Source: Catajapyx aquilonaris
Lineage: Eukaryota
Assembly: GCA_000934665.2 (NCBI GenBank)
Contig: KZ538718.1
Location: 1-52,303, forward strand
DNA length: 52,303 nt
Direction of reading: 5' to 3'
Of the stretch, positions 1 to 39,589 are shown piece by piece. The notes below the pieces were generated by a model that was not told the DNA's origin, searched no databases, and saw nothing but the letters and a program-made list of their open reading frames with translations. The position numbers were made by a program, and so were the translations under genes. Each line of letters opens with the position of its first letter. Positions within the stretch are counted from its first letter, which is position 1.

Positions 1-79
1 TGATGTCCTCCAGGAATGCTAATAAAACCTGCTGTCAGAAATGAACAAAAATAATCAGAGTAAGCCACAGATGACTGAC

Positions 80-220
80 CTCAAAACGTCCGAACTTATT
101 TCTAAAGCCACTGTCACCATCTCCACCGTCTGCGGATGTGTCGAAATATCTCTTCATGCCGCCCCTGCCGCCCCGTCCTCCTCCTCTTCCTCTACCACCT
201 CTGGTCACACCGTTGGACAT
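80..220 (-). CDS. POF-like RGG-RRM-RRM-acidic protein, copy A (first coding exon only; gene runs off the left edge)
   Basis: ATG at 220, MSNGVTRGGRGRGGGRGGRGGMKRYFDTSADGGDGDSGFRNKFGRFE, then GAG|GTCAGT donor at 79. Nearly identical to 12523-12663 of copy C; the intron sequence at 1-79 matches 12444-12522. Confidence 0.8.
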
Positions 221-1793
221 ATCGCCCTGTTGAAGCAAAATAATTAAATAGCACCATCCAAAAACTTCGGTACATTTTGATAACAGAACCATGCCAGTTC
301 AATAGAGCCTTCCAAGAGACTTTAGTTCCAGTGGAAGTCAATACTTTGCCAATTTTGTACAGTTGAATCCGGATATAACAGACTTCAAGGGGCTGCAGAA
401 AACAGTCTGTTATAACCAAGGTTTGTTATAGCCAAATTACCAATTTTGCAACGATACACAAAGTTTTCTGCTTTTTACATGCTTATAATGCACACTAGCA
501 AACACTAGTCTATACTGATTATCGATTAATGAAACTATCCACAAAAATGCAAAATTAGTTCACCCACAACTTTGGCAGGACCAAAAATAATCCATCATTT
601 TCTTTTGCCGTATCCATCTTGCCAAACATACTAGAAAATGAATGATTTTGACCTTTTCGGTAAGTGTTAGATCAGTGACAGGTGGGAAAATCATCGCTGT
701 ACCAGTATGCAGTGCTTTCCTCGCGTGGGAAAGGAAGCTGATGTTGCATAGTTCCGTTGCATAGTGATTGTATATCAATAAACACGAACGGTTGTACTTT
801 TCTTTCGCTCTCCGATTCCCTGTCATCGCTGAGTGAATTGCTCATATGTAAACGCGGCCTTAACCCTCGATCATCTCATCAGACAACCTTTAATTAGCAC
901 TAACAACAGCAATACGTACAATAATTACGGGACTGTACTGTGAAGGTTAACGTACAGGCGTACCAGGCTTTTACTGACACATTTTTCTCCGCAATCTTTC
1001 AACAAACTGATCCAGAACATTGTTAAAATTTAAGCGCTTAGACATAACATTATCTCAAGGATTAAAATTTAAAAGGTTGAGAAGCCCTGTCAACACCCGG
1101 CAATGGGAAATGCTGAGCCTAGACGACCCACGTGGTCCGCCCCTCCATTCAAAAGAGGTCAAAGGGGCTTATCCGTCGGGTGATAGCGGCGATCTGTTGC
1201 AGCCTTTGTCCTGCCCTGATCACGATTAACTCCGGAGGCACCGGTGGTAGCAGAAGAAGGCAATGAAGTTGGAATGGTGCGGATACCCACCCGACTTGCT
1301 TCCTCCCTCGAGCAACGTGGGGGGAAAAAACGTGGGACCGATGGACGGAGGAACGGAACGGAGACGGTGGGACAGGAGGAACGGAGCGGGACTTGGGACC
1401 CGGTGCTGTGGATTCCGGAATCTCCCCCTTTCCAGACCTGAACACGTTTGATGTTGATCAATAACCTACCATTAAATGTTTTCAAATAGTCAGCATTAAC
1501 CTGTACCTAGCATACTTCACCACCAAATGTTATTTTAATTCACCTGAAACAGAGAATGAAAAGAAACGCTCCCGTAGAAGCATGGTTTTTAATCGTCAAA
1601 ACCACTATTGAGACAAAAGTAATGGACCCATACATATTTTTATATTTTTCGTGAAAATAATAAAGGGAATCCTAAGAGTCAACAGCGTGTGCCATTCATA
1701 ATAACCTTGGCACCCATGATTAAAAGTATCTTCCAAGATGAATGTGATTAATTTAATGATGGGGGTGGGGCAGATGTGAGCAGAGGAGATGAA

Positions 1794-4700
1794 TCATTCA
1801 TCACCGTCCTCGTCCTCGTCATCCTCCTCTTCATCGTCGTCGTCGTCGTCTTCATCGTCCTCCTCCTCCTCCCCCTGCACATCGTCGTCCTCGTCGTCCT
1901 CATCTTCATCCTCCTTAATAGCAACCTGCAATACCAGTTTCATTAATTTCATTTTTTAACAAATTGAGGGCAGAAAAATAGCACATCTTGTAACCGTAAT
2001 AACCAATTTAAATAAACCCTTAATGATGAGAGAACATGTGCCAACTGATCAGTTTCCAAAAATCTCACGAAAATATGTGCAGAAGCATGAAAAGTTTGAC
2101 AATCATTACATGCTTCTCTACATTTCTCGCAATGTAATATATTTCTATCATTATAACTTGCATCATCTTTATCTATATTTTAGTTTGTTTGTGAGTTTGT
2201 TTGTGAGTTTGTTTGTCCCTTATAGAAATCCCAGGGAAGGCCCCTACACCGCCTTAAATTAGCATATCAGGGGTTACTTTTTCCAAGGAATACATAAGCA
2301 ATGAGCAATGTGCAGTAATTCTAGAAAACAAGATATTTGTTACAAGAAAATGGATGCCGATATTAAAATTCTGACTTCATATTCACAATCAGCGCCTCCT
2401 AATACATGAGAAACACCAAAAATGGTGCCTTAAACAAAACCTAATGTTGCCCAATAAATTAATGATATTGAGAGCTATGCAAAGTAGGCCTAATCTCGGG
2501 AGAGTAAGGCATGTTAAAAGAAAATGGATACCGACAGAAATATTTTGACTTCAGAATCAAACTCAGCAAATACTAATACATTGTAAAAAGTGAAAATTGC
2601 TTATTTAACCAAACCATTGTAGACCATGTATTAGTCACATTGAGCAATGTGCAGTGTACTTTCCCCAAAATAAGGTATGGCTGTTTCAAAAAAAATGGGA
2701 GGGTGATGGACACTTTCTGACTTCATATTCGGAATCAACGCATATGAATGCATTAGAAACAGCTAAAAATTTTCTTGTGCCAAAAACCTTGTGGACTAGC
2801 GTAATTGGTATGATATGCTGCATGAATTTCGTTTTTATTGTTGCCTTCCATGTTTTTCGCTGATAAAAAAATGGTCAACAGTGCACTTGGTGATAAAACC
2901 ATGAAATGTTGTAGGAATGTCTTGAGACCGCACTCTTCTAATTCAGATATGGCACCACACCCGTTTTCGCCCTGGACACCCGTAATTGCTGATTGGCTAC
3001 CCTTAAGTGAATGAAAAGTCTTTTTCAAGTCGCTGTAGCTCCAAAAATACCAAGGAAAATACGAACTGTATGTGGAAAAGGTACGCTATGCTTTTTTTAA
3101 AGCATACATTCTCCTCTACAACCTTTGTTTGGCACATACCCGCATGAGAAGCACAGTTCGCTCAGAAAAAGACTTTTCACTCTTCCAAGAACTTTCAGTG
3201 CTGACCCGGCCATGGATGGCCCTACAGTCCAAAAGCTATGGAACACATTAAATTATATATAAAACTATAAAACATTGTGAAACCCTCCCCATTATTGTAT
3301 GAGACAGATAAATGTCTTTAAACGGGACAGTGTGTGTTGTTTACACCATCAGTAAATACGTAGCCTGTAGGCCATGCTGTAGGCGAGACACCTGGAAGGT
3401 ATTTTTATGGTGGGGTAGAGTTTCAACCCACAGACTGCAACATTTCCTTAGCTAGGGGCTAGTTCAGCCGCATCGGGCCCCCCTGGAAAGTAATTTCAGA
3501 GATCTTAAAAGAAATTTTAATAGCTCGATAGCTCAATTTAATCTCGTAAAACCGATAGCTCCATAAAAGTTCAATTGGATGTGGGTTTCACATATATATT
3601 TCTTGGAACAAAATCAAAGACCATTGCTGGTCACCCTCTGTCTGAATTGAAATGGAACCAGCCTATTGTTGTTACCTAGAATAACAATAAAATATCAACC
3701 ATCATTTCTCTCACCTTATTTCCCCCCTTCTTCTTAGGAGCCCCAGGACTCTGGGATATTGAGTTGTCTCCATCTCGGTCACCTCTTCTCTTTCGGCAAA
3801 ACCTTACAGACACAGCTTTCCCATCTAGATGTAAGTTCTTATGCGCATGGAAAGCCAGCAATGCAGCTTCACTAGTTTTGAAATTGATAATTGCAGACTT
3901 GAAAATGGTGAGCTTCCGAGTGGGAATTGTGATGGCACTGGCCTCAGTGAAGATGCCCTCAAGCTTTGATTTCTGAATGTTCCCAGGGAGGCCACTCACG
4001 TAGAGCAGGTAGGGGTCCACCTTCTCTGGGAAGACCTCCACCTTAGAATTCTCTCCCTTCTCTACACGCAGCTTGCGACCGCCAAATTCCTTATCATTCA
4101 GTTTCTCTATCACTTTTTCTGCATCTTCACCTGGCTTCATCCTCGCAAAGCAGTACCTGCACATCAAACGGGAGAGAAAGATTAAAGAGGGAAGATCAAT
4201 ATCTTATGTAAATCTGAACTTCGTAGTAATCGTAACTTGCATTTTTTTGTAATAGAAAAAGCATTAATTCAAGGAAATGATAAAAATTTCACACAAAGTT
4301 CTAGTTAGGGTGGTTGTACCAGTTGCCGCCAATGCTCCATATGTGGCCACCTCTGGTGGTCAGAACTAAAGCACCCTATGCACCACTTGTGGCCACAAAT
4401 GATAAAAGTTACAATTTGACGAAAAATACAACAAACCTAGCTAGCCATGATAAATTATTCGAATACTGATTACAATCAATAGTAATCTGATGTTATTTTA
4501 ACCATGAATTGGAAGTGTTATGGTGAAATACTACATTGCAGGTTGGGTGGAATTAGGATTTCCATTGGGAATTACAATTTATCTCGTCTGATATTCCGAC
4601 AGTAATATTAATGATCAATTGATTGGGCACCACTTCCACACTTACTTCCTGCTAGGAAGTGACATTTCCGTCTTGGAGAATCCAGAGTGTGTGTATGAGG

Positions 4701-7621
4701 GTAATTCAAATGTACGAGCCAAGGTCATAGCTGTTGCCAAATGGGTTTCTCATGGCATCTTCTACACAAAATGAAGGTGGTGTTGTAGTTGCAGTGTCGT
4801 AGTGTTATGACACACCGAGTGGTCAGGACAACACCCCCACCCCACCCCCCACCATTGAAAACACTCTCCAATCAGACATAGAAGCAACTTTGAGCAGCAA
4901 GCAGTAATTAGTTTTTGAACTGCAGAAGGTGTCTGGTGTGCCGAAATTAATTGGAATTTTGTCACATGTTAGAGCCTAGAGTAAGCGGTTTGCCTGGCCA
5001 AACCTGGAATCACCAGTCACTGACGGCCGTCCCTCTTGGAACTCTTGGAACCCCTTACTCCAGGCTGTAACATGTGACAAAGATATCCAGATTTTGTACA
5101 CAGCATACTAATACGACAATACAGACACTCTCCATGGTTCAAAAAGAGATTACCTCAAGTGGGTCAATATTATTTTGTTGCTTCCATGTACGACTGGACA
5201 TTCTTTATGACCCAGGGGGGTTCTGAAAAAGTCACATTGCCATAGGGGCATGTGGTCAAATCAAAATCTGCCAGAGTGTCATAACACACCACAGCAGTAC
5301 CGCCTTCATCTTGTGTGTAAGATGCCATGAGAAACCGATTCTCAAGTTTGGGTGACCTTGGCTCATTTTCATTTGAATGACCCTGAAACGATACCAACGA
5401 AAATTCATTTGCACTACATCCAAAGTCACAAATTAGTGCCTGAAAGCAGTGGCAGTAGCAACATTGTCGATAAAACTCATGGGACAAATGTCACAACAGG
5501 TGACAATGGCATTAATTTGTCCGTTTGAGAATCAACGAACAGGTTTTTGGAAAAAATATGCAGGTCGCCAGAACTGGAGCAGGGGTGGCCAGAACTGGTA
5601 CACCTTGCCCTTTTTTATATGGAAGGCTTTTTTTCAAACTTAAATTTTCTCATATTTTCGTAACAAATTACCAGTTAAATGGCCTACACCATCAATGCAT
5701 TCATTTACTTGCATGAACTCTTGCAGAAACTTTCAATTCAAAGTTATGAATTTCCAAAGTCACAATTTCTCTAAAAGTGGCCACAACCGGTACAAACACC
5801 TTACGGTAAATTTTTAAAATCACCAATGATAACGTGTATTTTAGCTACAACTTCTCTTGTGAAAGTAAGAGTTTTAATCAATTTTAGGCCACAGAACTTC
5901 CAGGGGATGAATTGTAATCTGCAGACTCACCGTGGAGCATGAGAGACAGGAAAGAAGAGAGATTCAAGTAAATAGCTGAACCCCAGGACAACACCATCAT
6001 CTGGATCTGGATCTGGAAACTTAATGAACAGGTTATCTGACATGAAGCTCTTGGTGTGTTCCAGTTCTGCATTGGCTGCCTTGGTTGCAGAGTCAATGTC
6101 CCTCTTGTTCCTAAACCCATCCTGGAAACCTCCTCCTCTGCGGCCACCCCTGCCACCACGGAATCCTCCACCGCCCTGGCCACCCTGGATGTCGCCTCCT
6201 CGGCCACCCCTGAGTAAGTCTCCACCGCCACGACCTCGCCCTCCACGACCACGGAACCCACCTCTGGAGCCGCCATCATCACCATCCTGCAATTTTAAAA
6301 ATGCACATTACTTCATGTCCTCCAGGAATGCTAATAAAATCTGCTGTCAGAAATGAACAAAAATAATCAGAGTACGCCACAGTTGACTAACCTCAAAACG
6401 TCCGAACTTCTTTCTAAAGCTGCCACCATCTTCCCCATCTGGGGATGTGTCGAAGCTCCTCTTTATGCCGCCCCTTCCACCCCGTCCTCCTCCTCTTCCT
6501 CTACCACCTCTGGTCATACTGTCTGGGGATGTGTCGAAGCTCCTGTTCATGCCATCCCTTCCACCCCGTCCTCTTCCTCTTCCTCTACCACCTCTGGTCA
6601 TACTGTCTGCAGATGTGTTGAAGCTCCTCTCCATGCCATCCCTTCCACCCCGTCCTCTTCCTCTTCCTCTACCACCTCTGGTCATACTGTCTGCAGATGT
6701 GTCGAAGCTCCTCTTCATGCCATCCCTTCCACCCCGTCCTCTTCCTCTTCCTCTACCACCTCTGGTCATACTGTCTGCAGATGTGTCGAAGCTCCTCTTC
6801 ATGCCATCCCTTCCACCCCGTCCTCTTCCTCTTCCTCTACCACCTCTGGTCATACTGTCTGCAGATGTGTCGAAGCTCCTCTTCATGCCATCCCTTCCAC
6901 CCCGTCCTCTTCCTCTTCCTCTACCACCTCTGGTCATACTGTCTGCAGATGTGTCGAAGCTCCTCTTCATGCCATCCCTTCCACCCCGTCCTCTTCCTCT
7001 TCCTCTACCACCTCTGGTCATACTGTCTGCAGATGTGTCGAAGCTCCTCTTCATGCCATCCCTTCCACCCCGTCCTCTTCCTCTTCCTCTACCACCTCTG
7101 GTCATACTGTCTGCAGATGTGTCGAAGCTCCTCTTCATGCCATCCCTTCCACCCCGTCCTCTTCCTCTTCCTCTACCACCTCTGGTCATACTGTCTGCAG
7201 ATGTGTCGAAGCTCCTCTTCATGCCATCCCTTCCACCCCGTCCTCTTCCTCTTCCTCTACCACCTCTGGTCATACTGTCTGCAGATGTGTCGAAGCTCCT
7301 CTTCATGCCATCCCTTCCACCCCGTCCTCTTCCTCTTCCTCTACCACCTCTGGTCATACTGTCTGCGGATGTGTCGAAGCTCCTCTTCATGCCATCCCTT
7401 CCACCCCGTCCTCTTCCTCTTCCTCTACCACCTCTGGTCATACTGTCTGGGGATGTGTCGAAGCTCCTCTTCATGCCACCCCTTCCACCCCGTCCTCTTC
7501 CTCTTCCTCTACCACCTCTGGTCATACCATCTGGGGATGTGTTGAAGCTCCTCTTCATGCCGCCCCGTCCACCCCGTCCTCCTCCTCTTCCTCTACCACC
7601 TCTGGTCATACCGTTGGACAT
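1794..7621 (-). CDS. POF-like RGG-RRM-RRM-acidic protein, copy B (~719 aa, expanded RGG repeat)
   Basis: Exons 7621-6392, 6286-5931, 4156-3715, 1925-1794; all GT-AG with consistent phases (0,2,0), 2160 nt total. RRM1 LFIKFPDP...APRYCFARM...KEFGGRKLRVEK; RRM2 VDPYLLYVSGLP...VSVRFCRKR; poly-D/E tail ending at TGA. Confidence 0.85.
2164..3600. mobile_element. Insertion in a copy B intron, possibly a non-autonomous Helitron-like element
   Basis: This intron is 1789 bp versus 464 bp in copy C. Homology to C stops at ~2164, where a (GTTT/GTGA)n tract begins. The right boundary is approximate and the class is tentative. Confidence 0.45.
4308..5801. mobile_element. ~1.5-kb TIR DNA transposon (TA-flanked, Tc1/mariner-pogo superfamily) in a copy B intron
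   Basis: Imperfect TIRs GGGTGGTTGTACCAGTTG / CAACCGGTACAAACACCT with TA on both sides. Flanks are contiguous in copy C (~11765-11795); the intron length difference is 1502 bp. Confidence 0.75.
4690..4965 (+). mobile_element. Degenerate mariner 5' fragment nested in the above element
   Basis: 4889-4954 translates FEQQAVISF*TAEGVWCAEINW, resembling the mariner N-terminal HTH start (EQRAVIRFLxAEG..AEIH); TATGAGGG TIR-like start near 4694. Confidence 0.55.
6437..7612 (-). repeat. Coding minisatellite, ~14 x 84 bp, unit MTRGGRGRGRGRGGRDGMKRSFDTSADS
   Basis: 84-nt periodicity is directly visible. The exon encodes 410 aa versus 47 aa for the same segment in copies A and C. Central units are identical, edge units diverged. 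Confidence 0.95.
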
Positions 7622-7680
7622 ATCGCCTGACTCGCTAACACTGGTTGAAGAAAAATAATTAAATAGCACCATGCAACAAT

Positions 7681-7915
7681 GGATACCCCGCGATAGGCCT
7701 CTTTGGGCCTTTTAGGGGATCTGCTTTTCATTCACCGTCTTTAATCATTGCCTGAGCTGTGATGGGTTTTGAATGTGGGAGGAAACGGGAGAACCCTGAG
7801 AAAACCCACGCGAACACGGAGAGAACTGATCGAAACTCTATCCACATAAGCATCCTATGTACGATTCGGGGATCAAACTCAGGACCTTAGAGATGGAAGG
7901 CTGTGGTGCCACCAT

Positions 7916-7921
<6 letters not shown>
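7681..7921 (-). mobile_element. tRNA-derived SINE with V-domain-like core
   Basis: Reverse complement has a tRNA-like head (B box GAGTTTGATCC), a core GTTCTCTCCGTGTTCGCGTGGGTTTTCTC...TTTCCTCCCACA, and a hairpin tail shared with other SINEs here. Adjacent (CT)n at 7921-7950. Confidence 0.65.
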
Positions 7922-7950
<29 letters not shown>

Positions 7951-8172
7951 NCCCCCCCTGCCATCCTGCCTGAATGTGTCCTGCCATCAAAATGCAATCA
8001 TCCCTCAGGAAACTCCTATACCTGCCCATAGTGAATGGGGTCCGTTTGTTTGAGTCTTTTGGCCTGGTACTGGAGCAGAAATTGCTGTTTTTTTTTGTTT
8101 TTTTAGGAGTGACCAAGGACCGGCCCTTCCCTCACCAGGAGCCAAAAGTTAATTAGGAAGTTAATTTGTTAA

Positions 8173-8454
8173 CCCTGGAACCGTGCCGTGGGGTCTTTTT
8201 GGACCCCAAGGCATTAAAATGCATTAAAATGATAACTACAATGAACTTTTGCCAAGTTTTTACAGTATATAACAGGAAGTGCATGTTTATTTTGAATTAG
8301 CGATCATTTTAGGCATTGTTCAAAGAATGATTGTATATAGTCAATACATTGAAAAGTATTATATAAACATTAATAAAAATTAAAATATGGATGGGGTCCG
8401 ACAAGACCACACGTCACGGTTGCCGTAACTTTCAGGCACAGCATGGTTCCTGGG
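8173..8454. mobile_element. piggyBac-type MITE
   Basis: TTAA|CCCTGGAACCGTGCCGTG ... CACAGCATGGTTCCTGGG|TTAA. Confidence 0.75.
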
Positions 8455-10310
8455 TTAATAAAATTCACATTTCATATACACTCGATAATCGATATGCCTT
8501 AAAACTGACCATTGTGTAGTGTGGGCTAATTGAAAACAATAAGCCAAAGTTTGTCATACTTGTAAAGGGCAGAAAGGTGTAACCCTACACTGGGCGATGA
8601 TTCCCGTTCTTGTACCAAACGATCCGGCAATTTTTTATCAATATACTCTAGCCATTAAATGAACGCCGATAAAAAATTGACTTACCCCCTTCTTGCACCA
8701 TACCCTTCAATTAATATTACAGCGGCTTCGGTGCAGTTTAGCGCCACAAAAATCTTGCAGGTTTCTGTATATTTCCTGGATCTACGTGATGAGATGAGTG
8801 GAATGACACTATTCCAAGAGTACAGACATGCTTGGTTCAAGAGTAATTGAATTTTGAAATTGCAAGTAATAACAAGGAATTACATGAAAGTAAACAAGTG
8901 TTCCTTTGATCGGTTCACTTCCATTGTTACGGGAGGTGATTCTCCGTGGAAACGTGAGAGTTGCCATTACAAGGTGCTGTGAGGGGTGCTGAATGATATA
9001 AATAAACGGTTATTTTTGGTTCGTTGGACATAGAACAAGAGTGTAGGAGTTTAATTAATTTAAAATCATTCAGGAGCATTCATGGCCGAGGATGTCGGTG
9101 CGTATCTGGAATTGGGCAAGCCAGGAGTTATAACCACTCGACTGTCAAGTGTACACTGGAGTGCCAAATTTAAGGAGTACCAAGGAATATCTGTGAGTAC
9201 CACTGCAGGTGTACACCGGAGTACCGAAGTGGTTAACCCCTTGGGGAAAGCTTTCCTAGAAGTAAGGAGGGAGGATGGTGTCTCCAGCTGGGCTACTGAT
9301 GCTCGAGCCCTCTTGCGCGCCAACAAGTGTTGCCATAAATGCATCCTAAGCTTTTTTTATTACTCAAGGCATGCCCCACGCTGATTGTGTTGGTGTTATC
9401 TGTGAGGCGTTGCAGTGACCGCACCAGTACTGTCCGTCTTGTGGCCCTGCCAGGCACGGTATGTCGCCCGTGCGTGATAATTTTAGTTAATGCGGAGCGC
9501 ACACTAGGAATACCACCACGCCTAAAACCACGTGGCCAACAACGCCACCATAAAACCCTTAAAAATTCACATTGTGAAGGGCGGATCAGCCCCTGTGCAG
9601 ATCAGACACCGGGAGAATGACCAGCCTAGACCCACGTGGTCCCCACCATCAGCACACGGCCGCCCTATCCGTCGGGTGGTGGCGGCGGCCTGCGTAGCTT
9701 TTGTCCTACCTTTACCATGATTAAGCACCGGTCGTGGAAGAAGAAGGTACGATACCCACCGGAGTGATTGCTTCCTCTCTGGGGCAGCGTGGGAGGCATC
9801 CAGAAGCAGCTGAAGCAACGAGCCGATGTCTTTTCCGACTTCCGATGGACGGAGGAACGGAACGGGACGGTGGGACAGTGAGGAACGGAGCGGGACTTGG
9901 GACCCGGTGCTGTGGATTCCGGAATCTCCCCCTTTCCAGACCTGAACACGTTTGATGTTGATCAATAACCTACCATTAAATCAATGTTTTCAAATAGTCA
10001 GCATTAAAACTGGACCTAGCATACTTCACCACCAAATGTTTTTTTAAAATTCACCTGAAACAGAGAATGAAAAGAAACGCTCAAGTGTTCGTAGAAGCAT
10101 GGTTTTTAATCGTCAAAACCACTATTGAGACAAAAGTAATGGACCCATACATATTTTTATATTTTTCGTGAAAATAATAAAGGGAATCCTAAGAGTCAAC
10201 AGCATGTGCCATTCATAATAACCTTGGCACCCATGATTAAAAGTATCTTCCAAGATGAATATGATTAATTTAATGATGGGGGTGGGGCAGATGTGAGCAG
10301 AGGAGATGAA

Positions 10311-13300
10311 TCATTCATCATCGTCATCGTCCTCATCGTCGTCATCGTCCTCCTCCTCTTCATCGTCATCGTCGTCTTCATCCTCCTCATCCTTCCCAAC
10401 TACTACTGGCCCTTTGACAGCTGTGACGAGGCTTCCTTTAGCCGGCACCTGACGAAAAACAATTAATTAGCCACCAATCACCCCACTGCATTACTGAGAA
10501 GAGATGAGCATCATCATTTGCAAAAATGCACATACTACAATCAAGTTACACCTCATTAAATAGTTATATGCCTTTTTGTGTGACACCCTAGTTTGTACTA
10601 TGCAGGAAATGTAGCTTCTTACCTCCTCATCATCGTCATCATCATCGTCCTCCTCATCGTCCTCCTCATCTTCATCATCGTCGTCTTCCTCATCATCGTC
10701 GTCATCTTCATCCTCGTCCTTCATAGCAACCTGCAATCATTATAAAACACCCGTTTCATTCATTTCTTTCTTTAACAAATTGAAGGCAGAAAAAATTGCA
10801 GTGTAAAAGTAATAACAATTTACAGTAATAAAAACAATTCACGATGGGAGGGCATATGCCAACTGATCAGTTTCCAAAAATCTCACAGAAATATGTGCAG
10901 AACCATGAAAATTTTCTCAATCATCCAATGCTTCTCTACATTTGTTGCAATGTAATTATTTCTATCATTATAACTCGCATATGCTCTCTTGCGTCATACA
11001 TGATACATCTTTAGGTTCATTCAAACTTGGATAGATATTAAAATGCAACACCGCGAGAAGCAACTTCAATCCATGATAACCACAGAGTACTGTTCAGGCT
11101 GGTACTGTTCTGCAAAAATTTCCTGTACTGAAGAAATATCCATTGTGCTATTGTGGTTACCTGGAATAACAATATCAACCATCATTTCTCTCACCTTCTT
11201 TCCCTCCTTCTTAGGAGCCTCAGGGCTCTGGGATATTGAGTTGTCTCCATCTCGGTCACCTCCTCTCCTTCTGCCAAATCTTACAGTCTGAGCTTGCCCA
11301 TCTAGATGCAAGTTCTTGTGCTCATTGAAAGCCTCCAATGCAGACTCACTAGTTTCGAAATTGATAATTGCAGACTTGAAAATGGGGAGTCTCCCTGTGG
11401 TGATTGTGATGGCGCTGGCCTCAGTGAAGATGCCCTCAAGCGTTGATTTCTGAATATTGCCAGGGAGGCCACTCACGTAGAGCAGGTAGGGGTCCACCTT
11501 CTCTGGGAGGACTTCCACCTTGGAATTCTCTCGCTTCTCTACTCGCAGCTTGCCACCGCCAAATTCCTTATCATTCAGTTCCTCTATCACTTCATCTGCG
11601 TCTTCACCTGGCTTCATCTTTGCAAAGCAGTATCTGTACACAAAACGAGGGAGGGAAATTAAAGAGGGAAGGAAAATATCGAATGTAAATCTGAACTTTG
11701 TAGTAATCATTACTTGAATTTTTGTAATGGAGAAAACATGAATGCAAGGAAATTATAAGAATTTCAAAGTTCTCGTCACAGTAAATTTTTAAAATCAGCA
11801 ATGATCATGTGTATACTAGCTACAACTTCTCTTGTGAAATTAGGAGTTTTAAACAATGTTAGGCCACATAATTACTAGGACCAGGTTTGTAATCTGCAGA
11901 CTCACCGTGGAGCTCGGGAGCCAGGAAAGAAGACAGATTCAAGTGAATCGCTGAACCCTAGGACAACACTATCATCTACTTCTGGATCTGGAAACCTAAT
12001 AAACAGGTTGTTTGACATGACGCTCTTGGTGTGTTCCAGTTCTGCATTGGCTGCCTTGGTTGCAGAGTCAATGTCCCACTTGTTCCTAAACCCACCCCGG
12101 AAACCTCCTCCGCCCCGGCCACCCCTGAATCCACCACCCCTGCCGCCACGGAAGCCGTCATCATCGAAACGGCCTCGTCCGCGTCCACCAAAACCACGTC
12201 CACCACGGAATCCTCCACCGCCCCGTCCACCCCTGAAGTCACCTCCTCTGCCACCCCTGAAGTCGCCTCCACGGCCACCTCTGAAGCCACCGCCACGACC
12301 ACCCCTGAATTCACCACGTCCTCCCCTGAATCCACCACCCCCGCGGAAGTCTCCACCGCCACGACCTCGCCCTCCACGACCACGGAATCCACCTCTGAAG
12401 CCACCATCATCACCATCCTGCAATTTTAGAAATGCACATTACTTGATGTCCTCCAGGAATGCTAATAAAACTTGCTGTCAGAAATGAACAAAAATAATCA
12501 GAGTAAGCCACAGTTGACTAACCTCAAAACGTCCGAACTTCTTTCTAAAGCCACTGTCACCATCTCCACCGTCTGCAGATGTGTCGAAGCTCCTCTTCAT
12601 GCCGCCCCGTCCACCCCGTCCTCCTCCTCTTCCTCTGCCACCTCTGGTCATACCGTTGGACATATCGCCTGACTCACTAAGACTTGTGTCACCCTGTTGA
12701 AGCAAAAAAATTACATAGCACCATGCAAAAACTTACTCATTTTGATAACAGAACCATGCTAATTCTATGCAGCCCTCCAAGTGACTTTAGCTACAGTTCA
12801 AGTGAATACTTTGCCAATTTTGAATAATTAAAAGATCAATCTATGAATGCTCGTATGTTTGGAATTGGCCAATGGCTCTAGAGCAGGGTTAGCAAAAAAA
12901 AATGAATAATAATAATAAAAAGGGGGGGAATAAAACGCCTACACCTTTTAAGAATTGCTAATGAATATCAACCCTGTTCACTATCCCACACTTTTGTATG
13001 TTCGAGTTGTCCTAAGCCAAGTTTGAGTTTTCCCTGGCACGAAAAAAAAAGGCCGTAAAGAAACAGCCACAAAACCGAGCATGGGCCAACTCCACTAGTA
13101 ATTCGATTGGTTCAACCATTAAAGCATTTCTGCAAGATTTTTGAAATTTATTTTTTGAGAGGGTTGAGCAAAAGCACCATTTGGCAACAATGCATGCAAC
13201 AAAGCAAAGGGTCCAGCCCTTCAAACAAGCACCATTTTTTATCCATTGATATGATTCAAGAATGTTTGCATAACAAAGATAGCCCAGACATAACTGAAAA

Positions 13301-14945
13301 TACCTCTGCAGTACTGTTTTCACACATCGGTTTCAAAATGCTGCACTAAGCCACCAAATAGCTGAGGTGGCTTTTTGCATAATTATTAGGACAAATATAT
13401 TGTACTTAAAGGCAGCATTCAGAGAGGAATTCACTAATAATCTCCCGTACATGCTTTAGGCACATGTACCGCTTTAGGCAGTATTTTTTATGAGCGACAA
13501 ATCCAATTGTTTGGGGGCGAAAATCGATTGTTAAGCCTCTATTTCACAAATGAATGTTACAGCACTTGTAACATGCAACTGAAATTTTCCCCCACTACTC
13601 ATGATGCCATTTTTTTGTCGCCAGAAGACAAATTGCGGTGACAGATGCAAGATCTGGCTGCCTTGAAGCTCGTCACTCTGACGCTTAGTTGGCGGCAACA
13701 AAAAATGACGTCACAAGAAGTGTGAAAAAATTCCAGTCGCATCCTTTGTGAAAAGGCTTTACTTTCGCCCCAAACCATTAACCACTTTCCAGTACTGCGC
13801 CTCCAGCAGCGAAATTTGGCCTGCCATCAAAATGTTATAATCCTGCGGGAAACTCCTAAAGGGGGCAATTGAATGAATTGCTGAGCAAATTGCTCACATG
13901 TAAACGCCACCTTAACCCTTGGTTGAGAGGAGGTGAACTCCATGTGTAATCATACTCAATACTTTTCTTTCCATCAATGATCAGACTCATTGAGTACGTT
14001 TACATGGGACTAAAAATCGGCCTGACCCAGGCTTCCTTAGCAAGGCCATCGCCTTAGGTAGACCACCCGACCCAAAAGGCTTGGGCTGCGCCCGACAACA
14101 TATCAGATAAGGCCGGTCTATCGTAGGCCCAGCGGCTACATGGGAGTAAACCGGTTCGCCTAGCATAGGCTAGGCCGATTTTTAGTCCCTTGTAAACGTA
14201 CTCATTAGTCTTGTCCATTCAGCTGCTCTGAACTAGGTTTGAGCAGTCCATTAGTCTGTGAGTAACCAGCCCATCAAAATGTGCCCGTTTGGCACTCATG
14301 ACTAGTCTGATTGACTGATTTCTTTCTTTTCAAGCGGAAGAGCAGCATTCGCTGCACTGTGCCTAACACGCTATGCCTACCCACACCAACGTAAATTACA
14401 AGTCTGGTGGTTCGTAGAAAGTTACAAAAAAAAATTATAGGTGAACGTTATTGAGCATTTATCACTAGCCTGAAACCTACACCACTTTGGAGTAATTGAT
14501 GGTGCAATTAGGGCATGACCTGATGCAACATGAACCCAGTTCACCGAGGGGTTATAGTCACTTGATACCATAGTGTACAGCGGACTCCCCAACAACCGTA
14601 CTTCAGTCTCTGTAAATTCAGTGCAATACCAGCCAAGCAAATTCGCGCCCTCAAAGCCCACCACATGCTTAAGCCTAAAACCACGTGGCCAACCACGCCA
14701 CCTTAAAACCCTTAAAAATTCACCCCAACCGCCCTTTGCAATGCTCCCCAATGAACCCCACCCAATCTGATCAGCCCCTGTGCAGATCAGACACCGGGAG
14801 AACGACCAGCCTAGACCCACGTGGTCCCCCTCCATCAAAAAAAGCCGAAGCCCGCCATTAGTGCGCCTCGCCCCATCAGCACACGGCCGCCCTATCCGTC
14901 GGGCGGTGGCGGCGACCCGTGCAGCCTTTGTCCTACCTTTACCAT
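10311..14945 (-). CDS. POF-like RGG-RRM-RRM-acidic protein, copy C (~456 aa; ~445 aa if started at ATG 12663)
   Basis: Exons 14945-14943 (ATG|GTAAAG, inferred), 12693-12523, 12417-11906, 11633-11195, 10730-10623, 10448-10311; GT-AG and in phase. GGFRGGRG repeats, RRM1 LFIRFPDPE...PRYCF...FGGGKLRVEK, RRM2 DPYLLYV..., two acidic exons. The RFPDPE/PRYC/DPxxLYV pattern matches my recollection of insect POF. Confidence 0.85.
13991..14204. mobile_element. MITE with ~32-bp TIRs (PIF/Harbinger-like)
   Basis: TGAGTACGTTTACATGGGACTAAAAATCGGCCT ... AGGCCGATTTTTAGTCCCTTGTAAACGTACTCA. Related CGTTTACA-ended elements at ~840-860, 13890-13910, 16140-16250, 17465-17615, 42230-42345. Confidence 0.7.
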
Positions 14946-15290
14946 GTTTAAACTCTGGAGGCACTGGTCAGAAGGCAAAGAGTTCGAATGCGAGGCGGAG
15001 TACGGTACACACCCGACTTGCTTCCTCTCTCGAGCAACGTGGGAGTCCCGATGAGGCAGATTCCCCCGTTGGTGTGGCCTCCTCTAGGGGGGGTTGCGCT
15101 CCAGGGAAGGGAGGGCCGGACGGAACGCAGCTGTTTCGACCCGAAATAACAGATTGAGTCGAAGTTGTAGGCAGGGATCGGGTAGCCGTTGGCCGGTAGC
15201 CGCTTTTTAAGAATAGCTGTCGTGGTGGATCGAGGAGGGAGTGAGGGTGGCCAGATGAGTTAGGTACGCGCATGCTTCATTCACCACGCC
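14680..15290 (-). promoter_or_regulatory. CpG-rich promoter/first exon of copy C; homologous segments upstream of copy B (~9525-9950) and copy A (~1120-1440)
   Basis: Same relative position upstream of each paralog. Pyrimidine-rich CTCTTTGCCTTCT just 5' of ATG|GTAAAG; CCACGTGG E-boxes at ~14682 and ~14817, also at ~9528, ~9632 and ~1128. Confidence 0.6.
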
Positions 15291-17288: not shown

Positions 17289-20200
17289 TTATACAGTGAA
17301 TCTGTTTTTGGTGATGGATCCCGACTTGTTCATGGTGTCCACGTGGGTCTGGTAACCGATCGGGCTCTTCGATGGTATTTTTAACCTCTCCTTCAGCTTT
17401 TGCCTGTAAGACAAAGAGAGATCTGCATAAGACAACAGTTAGGATAACACACTACCATAAATACGACACATGAGCTATTTGATCAGCGATGATAATCGCT
17501 GAGGGATGACACCAATTGTTTGGGGCAAAAACATGATTGTTACTTTCGCCCGAAACAATTGATTTCATCGCGCAGAGACGCTCATCGCTGATCAAATCAC
17601 TCATATGTAAACCATGCCCTAAGCATTAAATTGAAGAAAAGTTAGTCCAATTTAAAGCAGTGTGATTTATGCCTCGTTAAAAATAAATACAAAGCGAATG
17701 ACTAACCCTATCTTCTGCACTGACTCCCCCTGGAGCGCATCCCCGGTCCAGATGCCGATCTTGTCCCCCTTGGGACGGATGGAGACTACGGCTCCGTTGA
17801 CTTCATCCGAGTGCTCGTCAAAGGCCTCTCCGATCATGCACAGGATGATCTCCAGCCAGCATTGGTCCAGGTCAGAGAGGCGCTGCCTCTTCTCCAGGTT
17901 GATCAGCCACCGACCTCCCTTCTTGTTGTGCTCGTCCTCCCACATCGGCTTGATGCCCTTCTTGAACAATGAGTAGTCGCAACCGTTGCGGAGGTCTGAT
18001 GCTCCCTTGATGTGGTTGTAGAGCCTGCCAGGAGAGGTCATCTGATTGACGTTCCGGCATATTCCATATTTTAATTGTTATTATGTGCACTCGGCTACTC
18101 ATCTACAATATTTGGATTATAGGAACCGAACTGTCACAAAGCGCCTGAAGTTATGACTGCCATAAAATAAAACACTTCCCTTTGAACAGCATCTGAAGCA
18201 GTGGGTTTTTAATTTTGCATCGCCCTTTTAAGCATTTCATTTCATTAGTACGAAATTATGAAACAGCTGCACCATATAAAATGCCTGATTCATAAGCACA
18301 CCTCCGATTCTGCTTTAATCGCATGATTACAATATTACACTATTACCGAGAGGCGACTCAACATATTTTCAATCTGGATCTGTCTGAAGCATCCATTTTG
18401 ATTGCAACTTACGCCCAGAAGTCTTCCACGGTGTCGAAGGAGGTGATCTCCCTCTGGTTCTCCTCCCAGCCCTTGGACTTGTCATTCTCGTAGTACCACA
18501 GAGTCCAGCAGCATTGTAGGGGATGCTTCACGTACAGCTCGGCTGCTGGATCAGGTGCAGAGGAACTGGCACCACTGGGAACAACTGCCGAAGCATTGTT
18601 TTGCTTGCCATCAGATTTGTGGTCGCCCTCCGAGTTGGACTGGCCCTAAGGAGAAATTTCCCCAACATTAACTTTCAATCATAAAATACCGAAGGGAAGT
18701 TTTGGGTGGGAAGAGCCAAACTCACAGTAAAACGAATACCCTTGTTAATTTATACAAGTTCACACACCATTCTGAGTTGCTTAGTTTATTCGAGATATTC
18801 CCCCCCAGGGAGAGGTTTTCTAAGACTTTGCAACTAGATAACGGTCAGGCACATTTTATAAATCCTCCCAATTGCCTTGCTCTTGGCTCTCATCCTTAAT
18901 TAAAAGATGCTATCATTGCATAATGATAAGGACTGCACCAATCTTGCCCATAATTGCATTGCATTAAATTGCTTAAAAATATGTCTTTGTGCTTGGTCAG
19001 AAACCAGGCAGTGGTTTCAAAAGCTGTGCATTAAAATGTGGGCTTTACACCTTGCCAGAGAACATTACAATATTTCCAAATTGCAACATGTGTTGTAACT
19101 GCACCGGAAAAGTATATTGGAAGATAAATCATTGAATCAAGCAGATACCATATCAGCAATACGTCAACCAGCTATGGTATCATTCAGTCAATTTACCTAC
19201 ATATGTACTGGTACTGGATCTTGAGTGCTTATTATGGAGGTTTACAATTCATACTCGGTGCTCAATATCAGATATTATTCTTTAAGGCAAAATGGTGCAT
19301 ATCAAGTAATCTCATACGACTATATGTGTTGCATTGTATGGGAATCCTAACAAGATCAATGGATTGTACAGGCAGTGGCCTACAAATACCACAGGTGCAT
19401 CAATGCATCACAAGTCAAAGTGATAGCAATTCCCCACATTCCCAGCACATATCAGATTGGCATCCTTCTAGAATTCTCCAGAATCCTCCACGACTTCTAG
19501 GTGGCACAAGCGTAATTCACGATCCCTTCACTTCCACTTGCAGCTTCATACCAAGTTGCATACCTAGCATACTATTGACGCAACCAGAAAATGGGCAAGA
19601 ATGACCATCACGAATGAACCTAATAACAATTTATGGCTGTTTTTGTCACTACCATTTTATGGTTGCATCAACAATACCAATACTAGGGGCTACCTGGCCC
19701 AGGATTCGTAACTTGATGTTTTAACAATTTAACAAAGGCAGTTTCAAGAAGTCATCATTTGTGATAATAGCACTGCAATCCCAGACTAGGCAGCCAGCAG
19801 AATGGCAATAAATGTGGGCCTGTGCTGTTGAATTATGCACTCTCTGCCACCTCCACACGTGGAATTTTAATCACATAAAAAGCAGCTCATGCAGAATGAA
19901 CAACATATTTAAATGGATGTAAAACTTCAAACACACTGTGGAGCGTAGTATCACTGCCTAAGCCCTACATTGGAATGACCCCTTGACATTATTATGAAAC
20001 AGTGGTCAGCCCTACTAATGTACAATCACTTGACCTCCAACCAGTTTCACACTACATACAAGCATCAAAATTTTTCCATACTTTCACCACCATAAACTGC
20101 AGAAAACGGAACGACCATCTTCGTCACACAACAATAGGAGTAAACAGTGGCAACAAAATGAACGTTGTTTACCCCCTATTGTTGCAGGAGAACAAAACGA

Positions 20201-24297: not shown

Positions 24298-31453
<7,156 letters not shown>

Positions 31454-32325: not shown

Positions 32326-33719
32326 ATGGGCTGCCTGCCGACTAGGGTGCTGCGGGAGGTGGACGGGCATGAAAAGGTTTGGTCCACGCCACTCATTTAT
32401 GCTCTGAAAGAGTAGCCTTTGACCGATTCATTCCTCTTCCAGGCCAATCAATCTCGCTTATTCCCCGACGAGCTTCTCCTCAAGATCTTCAGCCACCTGG
32501 GCCAACGTGACCTGCTGCTGGGGGCCGCCCTGGTGTGCAAGGACTGGGCCAGGGTGGCCATGGACCCTTTGCTGTGGACGGAGGTGGAGCTGGTCAGGTC
32601 AAGGAGGTTGAGCATGGAGAGGGCCAAGGAACTGATCCGGCACATGACGTGGCTGAGGAAGGTGCGGCTGGTTCATTGGGAGCCCCCTCGTGTTAATTGG
32701 TATGATTGGAAGAGTCCTACGGTCTATGTGGATCTGGATGATTGGAAGAATCTTGCCCAGTATGCGGATGAACTGCTACAGGTCATTGTAGAAACACATC
32801 CCAAATTGGAAGTGCTGGAACTCGCTCATTGCAACTTTATCTACATGGATTGTCTGGAGCAGGTGGCCTCCAAGTGAGTAGGATCGCAGTTGTTCCAACT
32901 GCAATAAAATGTGCTCAAAAATAACATCAACAGAATCATGTTAATTCTTATTTTCTTTTCTGTGTTTTGAACAGTTGTACAGACATTAAGGAGCTGGCGG
33001 TTAATTGCAGCAGTGTGTGGCACCCTAATTATCCCCACATATTTGATGTGTTTGGCAACAGTTCCAATCTGGAGAAGATCACTCTGAGATCTAACGAATT
33101 CTTAAGTTATTGTCATCTGGACACATCCACGAGAAGGAATTGGCCTAAACTCAGGGAAGTCGACCTGTCCCGGTTCTTCGGCACTGCTGACAGAGAGTTG
33201 GAGGTGGTGTGCAGAAGTGCTGCAGGATCTCTTCGGAAGCTTAGCATTTTTTCCGCGGTTGGACATCAGGCTCTGCTGAATCTGAGTCAGTGCACTCTAC
33301 TGGAAGACCTGAGTGCCTTGGTATTTAAGACGGATCATCTGAATCAGCCCATTAGAAACCTGAGGAACCTCCGCCGGCTTAATCTGGTTCCGGGGGTTCA
33401 TGAGGTCTGGGACTCGTTCTTCTCTATGCAGGGAGTATTTCAGAAACTTGAGAGGATTGATTTGAGCCAGTCTCTACAATTAAGTGACACAATCCTCTCT
33501 GAGATTGCCACACACTGCCCTGAACTGACCAGTATTTACGTGAGCAGTAGAGGTATAACCAAGGATGGGCTGGAAGATCTTCTCACCCGATCTCACAAAC
33601 TCAAGTCTCTGGAAGTCCTGCTTATAGGCAATACAGAAGAAACAGAACATTGCCTCAGAGATCTGAAAGAATTGCGCACCTTTTTCCCAGACATAGATGT
33701 GGTAGCCAGAAATTTTTAG
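32326..33719 (+). CDS. F-box/leucine-rich-repeat (FBXL-type) protein (~408 aa)
   Basis: Exons 32326-32376 (start inferred), 32443-32873, 32975-33719. F-box FPDELLLKIFSHL...VCKDWARVAMDPLLW, then LRRs (LEVLELAHC, LREVDLS, LRRLNL, LERIDLSQS...IATHCPELTSI). Confidence 0.88.
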
Positions 33720-38286: not shown

Positions 38287-39589
38287 TCAGATGAAAACAG
38301 GGTGAAATCCCTTGGCTGTCAACTTCTTACGGCACTTTGGGCACCTTTTGTCAACCTTCAGGGAATCTTGGAGGCATTTGGTGCAGAAGAGGTGGCCGCA
38401 GGTGGTCGAGCTAACTCCGCTTCCCCTGCTATTCAGCTGTTCCAGGCAGATGGCACATTCCGCACCAATGGAGGTTACCTTTGAACGCTTGCCACTTGGC
38501 AGCTCACTGGGAGATCCCTCCCGTTTCTGCTGCTTGGCCTGGGAAGACTTTCTTTTCCCTTGCTTCTTGGTTGGGGAAGTGCGTCTTGGTGGGGAAGTCT
38601 GTCCCGGGGGGGACTCGTCATCAGGCACCCAGTCCCCATCAGAATCTGAGTCAGAGTCCAGTTCAATAGTGTCATCACCTTGGATATTGCTCACGTGGAT
38701 CCGTGTGCGGTTGCCAGAAGTCTCTAAATTGCATTGGAGAAGTACCTGGGTTAGTTCCAACATGCTGATGAATTCAAGATTCCACAGGAGTTAGTGTATA
38801 TCTACACAAAACTACTTCCAAACCAACAAAAAAAATGCTAAGTGCGGCCAAACTTAATGGATAAAAAAGGTGGGACAAGTCTAATCGAGTAGGGTCAATT
38901 GATTCATTTGCGTGAAATTTACGCCAGAAATTTAGAAGCTTTATTAATTTGCATAATGACGAGGCAAGTGGTTACATACAAGATTATTATCTTAGGCATC
39001 ACCTGTGTGGCCTGCCTGCACTTCACCAGTTTGTTAGGGTTTGATGTTAATGTAAACTACCAAGACCTAAATTTCAGAATGTGTTATGTAAGGACATGCA
39101 CGAAATGAGTCAGTAGCTGTCTAACATGACCTTCAACACAACCCTTTGCAGCCACACTAGTTACTGCATTGCTTAGCAATTTCCTTGCCATTTGTCTCTA
39201 CCATTTCCTGTCACGTTTCGTATCTTATCAACATAATTGAGAATCCAGACAGCCACATCCTCTGATACAGAAAAAGAAAGCAGATGTGACAGCTCGTAAA
39301 AGTAAGCAGCCTGTAATAATGACACCACTCCAATACCAACCACATGAGCTTTATGATTATATGCACTGGCCACAACAATAATTCGTAACCAACTTAAAAA
39401 GCCTTTTTAAAAAAAAAAAAAAAAAAAAAGGGAGAGACTCTCACCACAGTGCAGGGAGCTTCCAGTGCGCAGCCTGAAGGATGCCCTGCTTGGACTTCCC
39501 TGGGTAAAGCTATCATCATCCTGGGTCAGGTCAATCACAGCACCATTGACATTCAGAGACAAAGAGATGGTTTTTCTCCAGGTAGCCAT
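38287..39589 (-). CDS. RNF4: RNF4/Degringolade-like SUMO-targeted E3 ubiquitin ligase (~193 aa)
   Basis: Exons 39589-39445 and 38723-38287 (phase 1; CTAAC branch point). SIMs VIDLTQDDD and TIELDSDSD; C-terminal C3HC4 RING CAIC...STTCGHLFCTKC...CPKCRKKL ending FHPVFI*, like the RNF4 YHPIYI tail. Upstream UTR exons are likely. Confidence 0.85.

Follow-up and report, generated by a model that had tools for sequence, protein, structure and literature searches.

Two complete genes and the first coding exon of a third, found in the 52,303-nucleotide stretch of Catajapyx aquilonaris DNA analysed here (contig KZ538718.1; hereafter the window), probably form a lineage-specific tandem array of fast-evolving RNA-binding proteins of the Painting of fourth (POF) family. 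The conserved core of these proteins is an N-terminal helix followed by a cryptic RRM1 and by RRM2, and the spliced models bear out the order per copy that a preliminary description had proposed, namely RGG/GAR arm, RRM1, RRM2 and poly-D/E tail. The locus represents a variation within a gene family already known, and no new kind of system.

Gene models and relations between the copies

Direct-repeat analysis and self-BLAST identified one unit that is present three times, with start-to-start spacings of 6312 and 6131 nt and with exon blocks that are 78-93% identical between units where they can be aligned. Two of the units, copies A and B, give spliced models with intact open reading frames and GT/AG sites at all introns (Table 1). 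Copy C is represented by window positions 1-226, which are 94% identical to 12444-12669 in the direct-repeat analysis; because the window holds just its first coding exon, the count of three genes rests on that single exon. The preliminary description of at least three head-to-tail minus-strand paralogs therefore stands for A and B as complete genes, and for the third extends to one exon. Self-BLAST showed two 1.5-kb insertions by which the introns of A and B differ, which together with the 78-93% identity indicates that the copies are paralogs and not assembly duplicates. Over 208 codons A and B have 82% amino acid identity, with dS 0.18 and dN 0.091, in agreement with the earlier view of a locally amplified, diverged family. 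The resulting dN/dS of 0.50 fits relaxed constraint equally well as diversification. Elsewhere in the analysis, the window was found to contain 96 N in four runs, Rfam and tRNA scans of the entire window returned no matches and no genes, respectively, and a protein search with an F-box/LRR ORF yielded 1025 candidates, none of them significant.

Table 1. Coordinates of the array features in the window.
Feature	Position	Strand	Description
Copy A gene	10311-12693	-	Complete; 5 coding exons, 445 aa, spliced model
A start-codon exon	12523..12693	-	ATG 12663-12661; RGG arm over 47 codons; 5' UTR at 12664-12693
A exon 2	11906..12417	-	GAR/FRGG repeats, N-terminal helix (WDIDSATKAANAELE), first half of RRM1 (LFIRFPDPE...APR)
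A exon 3	11195..11633	-	Second half of RRM1 (YCFAKM...KLRVEKRE), linker VDPYLLYV, RRM2, basic linker
A exon 4	10623..10730	-	First poly-D/E block; AG/GT sites
A exon 5, coding part	10311..10448	-	Second poly-D/E block and stop; 3' UTR runs on below 10311
SINE-like repeat	14673..15276	.	Upstream of A; related copies at ~9520-9981 and 1149-1506
Copy B gene	1794-7621	-	Complete; 4 coding exons, 719 aa, spliced model
B start-codon exon	6392..7621	-	410 codons, 14 units of a 28-aa RGG repeat (MTRGGRGRGRGRGGRDGMKRSFDTSADS)
B exon 2	5931..6286	-	Shorter GAR block, helix, first half of RRM1; AG/GT sites
B exon 3	3715..4156	-	Second half of RRM1, linker, RRM2
B acidic exon	1794..1925	-	Single, carries the stop; begins like A exon 4, ends like A exon 5
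Copy C, first coding exon only	80-220	-	47 codons; GT donor 79-78; remainder would lie left of the window

The splicing of copy A was read from a contig of run X5, a run whose kind is not on record, and was compared with run X1, which is DNA. The X5 contig contains three A exons without a mismatch, spans 12522-12694 and 11229-11633, and has joints at 12416/12522 and 11633/11906 with CT..AC ends, corresponding to GT..AG on the minus strand. Its loose end at 11193 matches 10699-10728 exactly, and this match confirms the junction of exons 3 and 4. The X5 contig thereby confirms three exon junctions of A, and none of its splice joints in A is present in run X1. Over exon 5 the X5 depth reaches 49.7 (bin 9981-10479), and the exon 4/5 junction is taken from the model. 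At the 5' end, the same contig joins an upstream non-coding exon onto 12693/12694. A stretch upstream of the ATG exon is conserved between copies (273-367 and 12738-12832, 83% identity) and had been read as a promoter belonging to each copy. Since X5 splices a farther exon to 12693/12694, this stretch is intron in copy A. It is missing from copy B, where self-BLAST similarity to A stops near 7679, and the reading as a promoter per copy is not borne out. The non-coding exon may lie in the SINE-like repeat upstream of A, where 15010-15043 (34 nt) is 97% identical to 1288-1321 in a related SINE-like copy. The 5' part of the X5 contig matches over 36 nt at 1284-1319, and no GT donor could be fixed for the exon near 15010-15043.

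In copy B the start-codon exon is dominated by the RGG repeat, of which 9 of the 14 units are identical. Tandem Repeats Finder placed the array at 6444-7611 with a period of 84, 13.9 copies and 98% matches, in frame; the same program found a 24-nt tandem repeat in A exon 2 at 12216-12315. The number of units in B is unreliable and may be an assembly estimate, as the scaffold looks short-read. Exon 2 of B is 87% identical to 11778-12137 of A in self-BLAST and exon 3 is 86.5% identical to its equivalent in A, and around the acidic exon 1823-2163 aligns with 10622-10980 and 1338-1867 with 9842-10393. Run X5 covers C and parts of B (bins 5490-6487 among them) poorly or not at all, which is not evidence on expression. 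Depths of X1 contigs are likewise not copy numbers, and these contigs skip the repeats.

Were the copies haplotype or assembly duplicates of one gene, then the general risk that attends a draft scaffold, with its runs of N, would be all that spoke for it, and we regard this explanation as extremely improbable. Exon blocks of merely 78-93% identity, a dS of 0.18 and the two intron insertions argue against it, as do a first coding exon of 141 nt in A against 1230 nt in B and two acidic exons in A against one in B. Contigs of run X1, a run that may be the assembly's own source, match the B-specific stretches 4002-4399, 4483-5071 and 5054-5459 without mismatches and match A at 10724-11116 (9 gaps) and 12646-13074 (1 mismatch, 1 gap). 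We give more weight to a second possibility, which nonetheless seems unlikely, that A alone is functional, B (and perhaps also C) being a duplicate in decay, and that the 14-unit RGG array of B arose by runaway repetition or in the assembly. The dN/dS of 0.50 for the pair speaks for it, and a highly repeated insertion sits directly upstream of the ATG exon of B, where the stretch shared by A and C is missing. The two acidic exons are fused into one, and the 84-nt units, 96-98% identical, cannot be sized with short reads. Yet the frame of B is open over 719 codons, including 410 through the repeat array, every splice site is canonical, and the core retains both its 82% identity to A and intact family motifs.

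Relationship to Painting of fourth

Exon 3 of copy A (146 aa) was used as the query for a phmmer search against 1.84 billion representative proteins. The search gave 138 matches at E<=1e-3, with insect proteins on top, and 30 of the 138 match clusters were looked up. For twenty of these an organism is given (insects in 18 cases, a crayfish and a nematode in one each), and seven of the 30 carry the name POF: Calliphora, Lygus, D. guanche, D. kikkawai, Onthophagus, Anopheles albimanus and Cacopsylla, the last two through the names of cluster members. E-values were 1.4e-13 for Calliphora Pof, 2.1e-11 for Lygus, 4.6e-9 for D. guanche and 4.3e-7 for D. kikkawai. Exon 3 scored 60-125 bits against POF relatives, and the top identity to any relative was just 34-37%. 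The 186-aa spliced module scored 80-120 bits against POF relatives as a single domain, compared with 12-21 bits for the best nucleolin-like domain. The POF motifs of the window proteins align column for column with those of the relatives, and this alignment and the matches to named POFs show that the RFPDPE...PRYC...DPxxLYV signature had rightly been taken as that of POF. Modulo is the nucleolin-like protein of Drosophila, and its name is absent from the 30 looked-up clusters. A word-indexed search for exon 3 among longer proteins gave 657 candidates and none at E<=0.001; this blank reflects the index only, as the exhaustive phmmer search later found the family.

The architecture of the core was examined through an AlphaFold2 model of a relative, P0010, for which a 67-row alignment served as input (pLDDT 86.5, pTM 0.75). 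The model consists of a helix and two beta-alpha-beta-beta-alpha-beta domains, and its best Foldseek matches are tandem-RRM proteins, with nucleolin at rank 7. Pfam RRM_1 detects only RRM2 in the window proteins, at 30.9 bits in exon 3 of A and 35.9 bits, in two stretches, in exon 3 of B. The aromatics of RNP1 are kept in RRM1 (PRYCF), and RNP2 is kept in RRM2 (LYVSGL; POF pattern LYxGNL). RNP1 of RRM2 reads KSAIINF and is missing two aromatics, where other insects have RYAFIRY (POF pattern RYAFxxY). With these residues missing from RRM2, it is uncertain that the core binds RNA.

A quick tree, in which long branches were flagged, placed the window pair together with all POF relatives in a 74-row POF-like clade, with nucleolin-like rows outside (SH-aLRT 94), so that in the phylogeny the window RRMs fall with POF relatives and apart from nucleolin. 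In the free tree a long stem, of 1.36 changes per column, leads to the pair, which lies outside a 64-row insect POF clade (SH-aLRT 95) and in an unresolved fork with a metagenome clade and a nematode and crayfish pair. An AU test did not reject a clade of the window pair with five hemipteran POF relatives (p-AU 0.48). From these sequences the window genes could be an old paralog instead of a POF ortholog. The neighbouring eIF4E exon (one exon, 106 aa) groups inside the insect clade (SH-aLRT 99), and on this one exon the genome is probably that of an insect. The idea of POF-type genes outside Diptera is thus true of this locus and is not new, since POF homologs from insects other than Diptera have been annotated before; one from cockroach, BGER016147, is published (PMC6894488). 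Literature searches found nothing on painting of fourth in crustaceans and nothing joining it with RGG. For Hemiptera, the consulted passages of a bioRxiv preprint are silent on such homologs, and among the titles returned for painting of fourth and paralog none is about POF paralogs.

The affinity with POF has to be weighed against a functional explanation, that the window proteins, whatever their ancestry, are nucleolin analogues that reside in the nucleolus and serve pre-rRNA and ribosome assembly with their modules in the opposite order. They contain the same three ingredients as nucleolin, and the GAR domain is characteristic of proteins of the nucleolus. Nucleolin also ranks among the closest sequences with a solved structure (9cb5_A, E 2.5e-6, 30.8 bits; 2krr_A, E 0.0038) and the Foldseek matches, and one of the relatives in the wider clade, from crayfish (P0117 cluster), has 'nucleolin' as its source name. 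However, that name is an automatic annotation, the order of modules is reversed, and the RRMs are two and not four. The same query that reaches 60-125 bits against POF relatives reaches ~31 bits against nucleolin, and the nucleolin-like rows fall outside the POF-like clade. We consider a nucleolin-like function unlikely and retain membership of the POF family as the preferred reading.

RGG arm, acidic tail and possible function

The window proteins contain 23 RGG (A) and 41 RGG (B). The strongly basic N-terminal arm carries a net charge of +22 in A and +76 in B, and the tail carries -54 in A and -32 in B. In a layout survey of 67 relatives, a C-terminal acidic tail was present in 35 and an acidic N-terminus in none. 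Among the 56 relatives with an N-terminus of >=50 aa, none had at least three N-terminal RGG, and none exceeded one. The RGG arm is therefore the novelty, because the acidic tail is common among relatives and the arm is absent from them. This result upholds the proposal that the arm was gained and divides that of a reversed nucleolin layout into an arm that is new and a tail that was inherited. The arm is probably expanding independently in each paralog through repeat slippage. Outside Diptera the acidic tail is a long-standing feature of the family, one missed by accounts that draw on flies.

The window proteins would be nuclear RNA-binding proteins, and we tentatively propose, as a possibility we hold to be less than even, that a POF-like core provides nuclear RNA binding, that the RGG arm adds avidity, and that the charges of arm and tail act on one another. 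The core, like POF, would bind RNA in the nucleus, probably nascent RNA, and the arm would contribute RNA binding of high avidity and low specificity. Because RRM1 keeps its RNP1 aromatics and RRM2 has lost them, the RNA contact may have moved to RRM1 and the RGG arm. Arginine methyltransferases typically act on RGG motifs. With arm and tail oppositely charged, the protein could either fold back on itself in autoinhibition or multimerise head to tail, and multimerisation could lead to coating or condensates. A further speculation, which we judge improbable, is that the array encodes diversifying factors that coat chromosomes or nascent RNA, in which the POF core would target, arm and tail would form a self-associating electrostatic 'zipper' for spreading or condensing along a chromosome, and the number of repeats would tune each paralog. 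If this were true, coating might concern, for example, the X of hemipteroid insects in dosage compensation.

To our knowledge, how POF picks out one chromosome is not settled, and the family has been studied nearly only in flies. Here a POF core has been kept alongside amplification, loss of stacking residues from RRM2, and a GAR arm of the nucleolin type that has expanded differently in each paralog. The locus could help to tell the role of the core from the avidity, methyl-arginine control and condensation of the low-complexity arms. Practical importance would be modest unless a chromosome- or sex-specific role emerges.

Comparison with known systems

Blowflies have POF homologs, no blokes in Lucilia and Pof in Calliphora. 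With Drosophila and blowfly POF the window proteins share the helix, RFPDPE, PRYC(F/L), FGxGxLxxE+K, (I/V)DPxxLY and an RRM2 ending in VRF+R, and in POF, as in the window proteins, Pfam shows one RRM only. The Drosophila POFs P0029 and P0054 have neither RGG arm nor poly-D/E tail, whereas the window proteins have both; unlike POF, the latter lack the RNP1 aromatics of RRM2 and are encoded in a tandem array. POF itself binds chromosome 4 and stimulates expression (PMC4624761, PMC2077892, PMC6894488). POF homologs of non-dipteran insects (Lygus P0015, P0002, Timema P0003) share this core, and behind it lies an acidic C-terminal region, with 18 D/E in a 20-aa window in P0002 and 17 in P0015. A few non-dipteran relatives have mildly R/G-rich N-termini (9 RG/GR in P0003, 6 in P0002). 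The cores are 34-37% identical to those of the window, and at most one RGG is found there against 23 and 41 here. Membership of the group of nucleolin, Nsr1 and Gar2 was considered and rejected on the reversed module order and on RRM scores of 30.8 bits against 60-125 for POF relatives. Like the window proteins, they combine tandem RRMs with a GAR domain and extended acidic stretches, and the RRM pairs are remotely similar. Animal nucleolin has four RRMs and the window proteins have two; nucleolin runs from an acidic N-terminus through its RRMs to a C-terminal GAR domain, and the window proteins run in reverse, from GAR through the RRMs to the acidic tail.

Structure and transcription of the array

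Within its leftmost 15 kb, the window carries one unit repeated head to tail. Direct-repeat analysis placed a 226-nt block at 1, 6313 and 12444 (spacing 6312 and 6131 nt), and the exon blocks of two units were 78-93% identical by self-BLAST. Gene models, obtained by reading the minus strand and splicing it by coordinates in a script, gave two intact genes, copies A and B, with GT/AG at all introns. Of the at least three tandem genes proposed in the preliminary description, the threefold repetition of the unit and the two intact members held, but of copy C the window contains one coding exon. No additional copy was found rightward of copy A within the window, where the next gene is eIF4E near 17.7-18.1 kb.

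Features of the window
Feature	Position	Strand	Remarks
Copy A, exons	12663-12523, 12417-11906, 11633-11195, 10730-10623, 10448-10311	-	445 aa
Copy B, exons	7621-6392, 6286-5931, 4156-3715, 1925-1794	-	719 aa
Copy C, first coding exon only	220-80	-	sequence read; window ends after
SINE-like repeat	1149-1506, 9520-9981, 14673-15276		one between successive copies, one upstream of A
Highly repeated elements	7486-9481		very high word depth in runs X1 and X5, up to about 45,000 in X1
D/E-coding repeat, last acidic exon of A	10315-10450	-
eIF4E exon	17670-18077	-	Pfam IF4E, 140 bits; taxon probe
Ribose-phosphate pyrophosphokinase (PRPS) exon	25849-26247	-	Pfam Pribosyl_synth, Pribosyltran
F-box protein, two long ORFs	32416-33719	+	F-box-like, 51.8 bits; weak LRR similarity
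RING-finger ORF, putative E3-ligase-like gene	38290-38790	-	zf-RING_2, 43 bits; serine/aspartate-rich and lysine-rich stretch before RING

An origin of the copies by haplotype or assembly duplication is very unlikely, because A and B differ in sequence (dS 0.18, dN 0.091, dN/dS 0.50 and 82% amino acid identity over 208 aligned codons) and in structure, and because each is matched by its own contigs. The introns of B carry two insertions of ~1.5 kb each relative to A, its first coding exon measures 1230 nt vs 141 nt in A, and its single acidic exon begins like exon 4 of A and ends like exon 5. Contigs of DNA run X1, which may be the source of the assembly itself, match three copy-specific stretches of B with 0 mismatches and two of A with 9 gaps and with 1 mismatch plus 1 gap, respectively. 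Highly repeated elements, recognizable from the peak in word depth, are inserted between A and B immediately upstream of B's ATG exon.

A second run of the same organism, X5 (run type unrecorded, 31.8 Mb of contigs), contains a 1187-nt contig that matches 12694-12522, 12416-11906 and 11633-11229 with 0 mismatches. It omits exactly the two modelled introns between these stretches, with ends GT..AG on the minus strand, and its joints were not found in X1. The loose end seen at the donor of exon 3 is identical to 10699-10728 and thereby fixes the exon 3-exon 4 junction. Copy A is thus a transcribed gene whose splicing agrees with the model. The first 98 nt of the contig lie on another exon, upstream of 12694; since this exon is spliced onto 12694, the conserved stretch before the ATG exon, read as a promoter copy in the preliminary description, is intronic in A. 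It has no counterpart in B, and the proposal that each gene carries its own promoter copy was not confirmed. Of the 98 nt, 36 resemble the SINE-like repeat, which is found again upstream of every unit and has 102 nt in common, without a difference, at 1376-1477 and 9880-9981. The 5' non-coding exon of the transcripts may derive from this repeat. At the D/E-coding repeat of A, 'goes back' joints and small insertions in X5 contigs suggest length variation or mis-assembly.

Family assignment and host

Pfam recognized RRM_1 in exon 3 (30.9 bits in A, 35.9 bits in B) and, in B, additionally the C-terminal half of the upstream RRM. When 1.84 billion representatives were searched exhaustively by phmmer with exon 3 (146 aa) as query, 138 matches reached E<=1e-3 and 18 of them E<=1e-10; the best identities were 34-37%. 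Clusters were looked up for 30 matches; 20 named an organism (18 insects, one crayfish labelled 'nucleolin' and one nematode), and 10 were records without a name that came from assemblies of metagenomes or runs. Seven of the 30 bore the name Painting of fourth (POF): Calliphora Pof, Lygus, D. guanche, D. kikkawai, Onthophagus, and cluster members from Anopheles albimanus and Cacopsylla. The 186-aa module, spliced in script, scored 80-120 bits against POF relatives as a single domain near full length, whereas multi-RRM proteins of the nucleolin-like kind reached 12-21 bits with their best domain. The POF signature given in the preliminary description proved correct in a column-for-column alignment with Drosophila POFs. 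Against solved structures, exon 3 matched chloroplast cS22 (7.9e-7) and nucleolin (2.5e-6, 30.8 bits), and on that score nucleolin is a remote relative, not the family.

In an 82-row tree built by a quick maximum-likelihood analysis, for which the tool warns of long branches, a 74-row clade (SH-aLRT 94) united the window pair with all POF relatives, apart from the nucleolin-like rows, as the preliminary description had expected. All organism-named rows of a nested 64-row clade (SH-aLRT 95) were insects. A long stem (1.36 changes per column) leads to the window pair, which meets a nematode-crayfish pair and an unnamed metagenome clade at an unresolved fork. A clade of the pair with five hemipteran relatives, a group chosen after the eIF4E result, was not rejected by the AU test (lnL difference 0.47, p 0.48). 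Membership of the POF family is thus supported; the tree is compatible with POF orthologs and with old paralogs alike. The unnamed clade (SH-aLRT 100; P0033, P0046, P0065, P0121, P0133 and P0134, from metagenome or run assemblies) has a lysine-rich N-terminus, very long poly-D/E tails and a POF-like core (VKLPDP...EPR...FGGGKL.VEEK...IDP(F/Y).LY). In the best match, P0001 (Nilaparvata lugens, 474 aa), a single gene model contains two nearly identical POF cores, which suggests a model fused across a tandem duplication; local duplication of POF-like genes may thus be recurrent in Hemiptera.

The eIF4E exon was closest to insects (up to 76% identity; decapods 66-69%) and fell inside the insect clade of a 47-row tree (SH-aLRT 99), weakly with Hemiptera (86). 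The host is probably an insect, judging from this one 106-aa exon. If so, POF does occur outside Diptera as proposed, but this was known before: hemipteran and coleopteran proteins already bear the name POF through automatic annotation, and a cockroach homolog is discussed in PMC6894488. The F-box protein looks lineage-restricted or fast-evolving, because a 264-aa part of it had no relative at E<=0.001 in a word-indexed search.

Predicted fold, charged termini and proposed function

An AlphaFold2 model of the relative P0010 (224 aa; 67-row alignment including both window exons; pLDDT 86.5, pTM 0.75) places two beta-alpha-beta-beta-alpha-beta domains after an N-terminal helix. The top Foldseek matches were tandem-RRM proteins (Sxl, HuR, nucleolin) at TM about 0.3. 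On this basis each half of the core is predicted to be an RRM, in a mutual arrangement that, as modelled, matches none of these top proteins. In POF relatives, Pfam sees only the second RRM, so the first is cryptic, which fits the description of POF with a single RNA-binding domain in PMC6894488.

The arm of copy A is 156 aa long with 23 RGG motifs, that of copy B 467 aa with 41. The repeat behind it is 24 nt in exon 2 of A; in exon 1 of B it comprises 14 units of 84 nt (98% matches, 9 identical at the protein level). Arm growth differs between the paralogs. Net charges are +22 (arm) and -54 (tail) in A, and +76 and -32 in B.

According to PMC4624761, PMC2077892 and PMC6894488, fly POF is an RNA-binding protein that lies on gene bodies of one chromosome and raises expression, and the blowfly homolog up-regulates the male X. 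By homology, the core would bind RNA in the nucleus. The arm could add avid, unspecific RNA binding and control by arginine methylation, and the opposite charges of arm and tail would let the protein either inhibit itself by folding back or assemble head to tail. The main rival for function is a role in the nucleolus like that of nucleolin. The tandem array is real and expressed, and its genes are divergent members of the POF family that carry a new RGG arm; only a demonstrated chromosome-specific or sex-specific role would make it much more important.

In the reversed nucleolin-like layout described in the preliminary description, the arm is new but the tail is not. Among 70 POF-like relatives, the C-terminus is 50 aa or longer in 67; 35 of these C-termini include a 20-aa stretch with 10 or more D/E, and 15 include one with 14 or more. 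The N-terminus is 50 aa or longer in 56; it is acidic in none of them, contains five or more RG/GR in only three, and never contains more than a single RGG. In this comparison the acidic tail is a trait of the family, common to many POF relatives, and the GAR arm is an innovation of the window genes. RNP1 of RRM1 retains its aromatic residues (PRYCF), whereas RNP1 of RRM2, RYAFIRY in other insects, reads KSAIINF in the window proteins.
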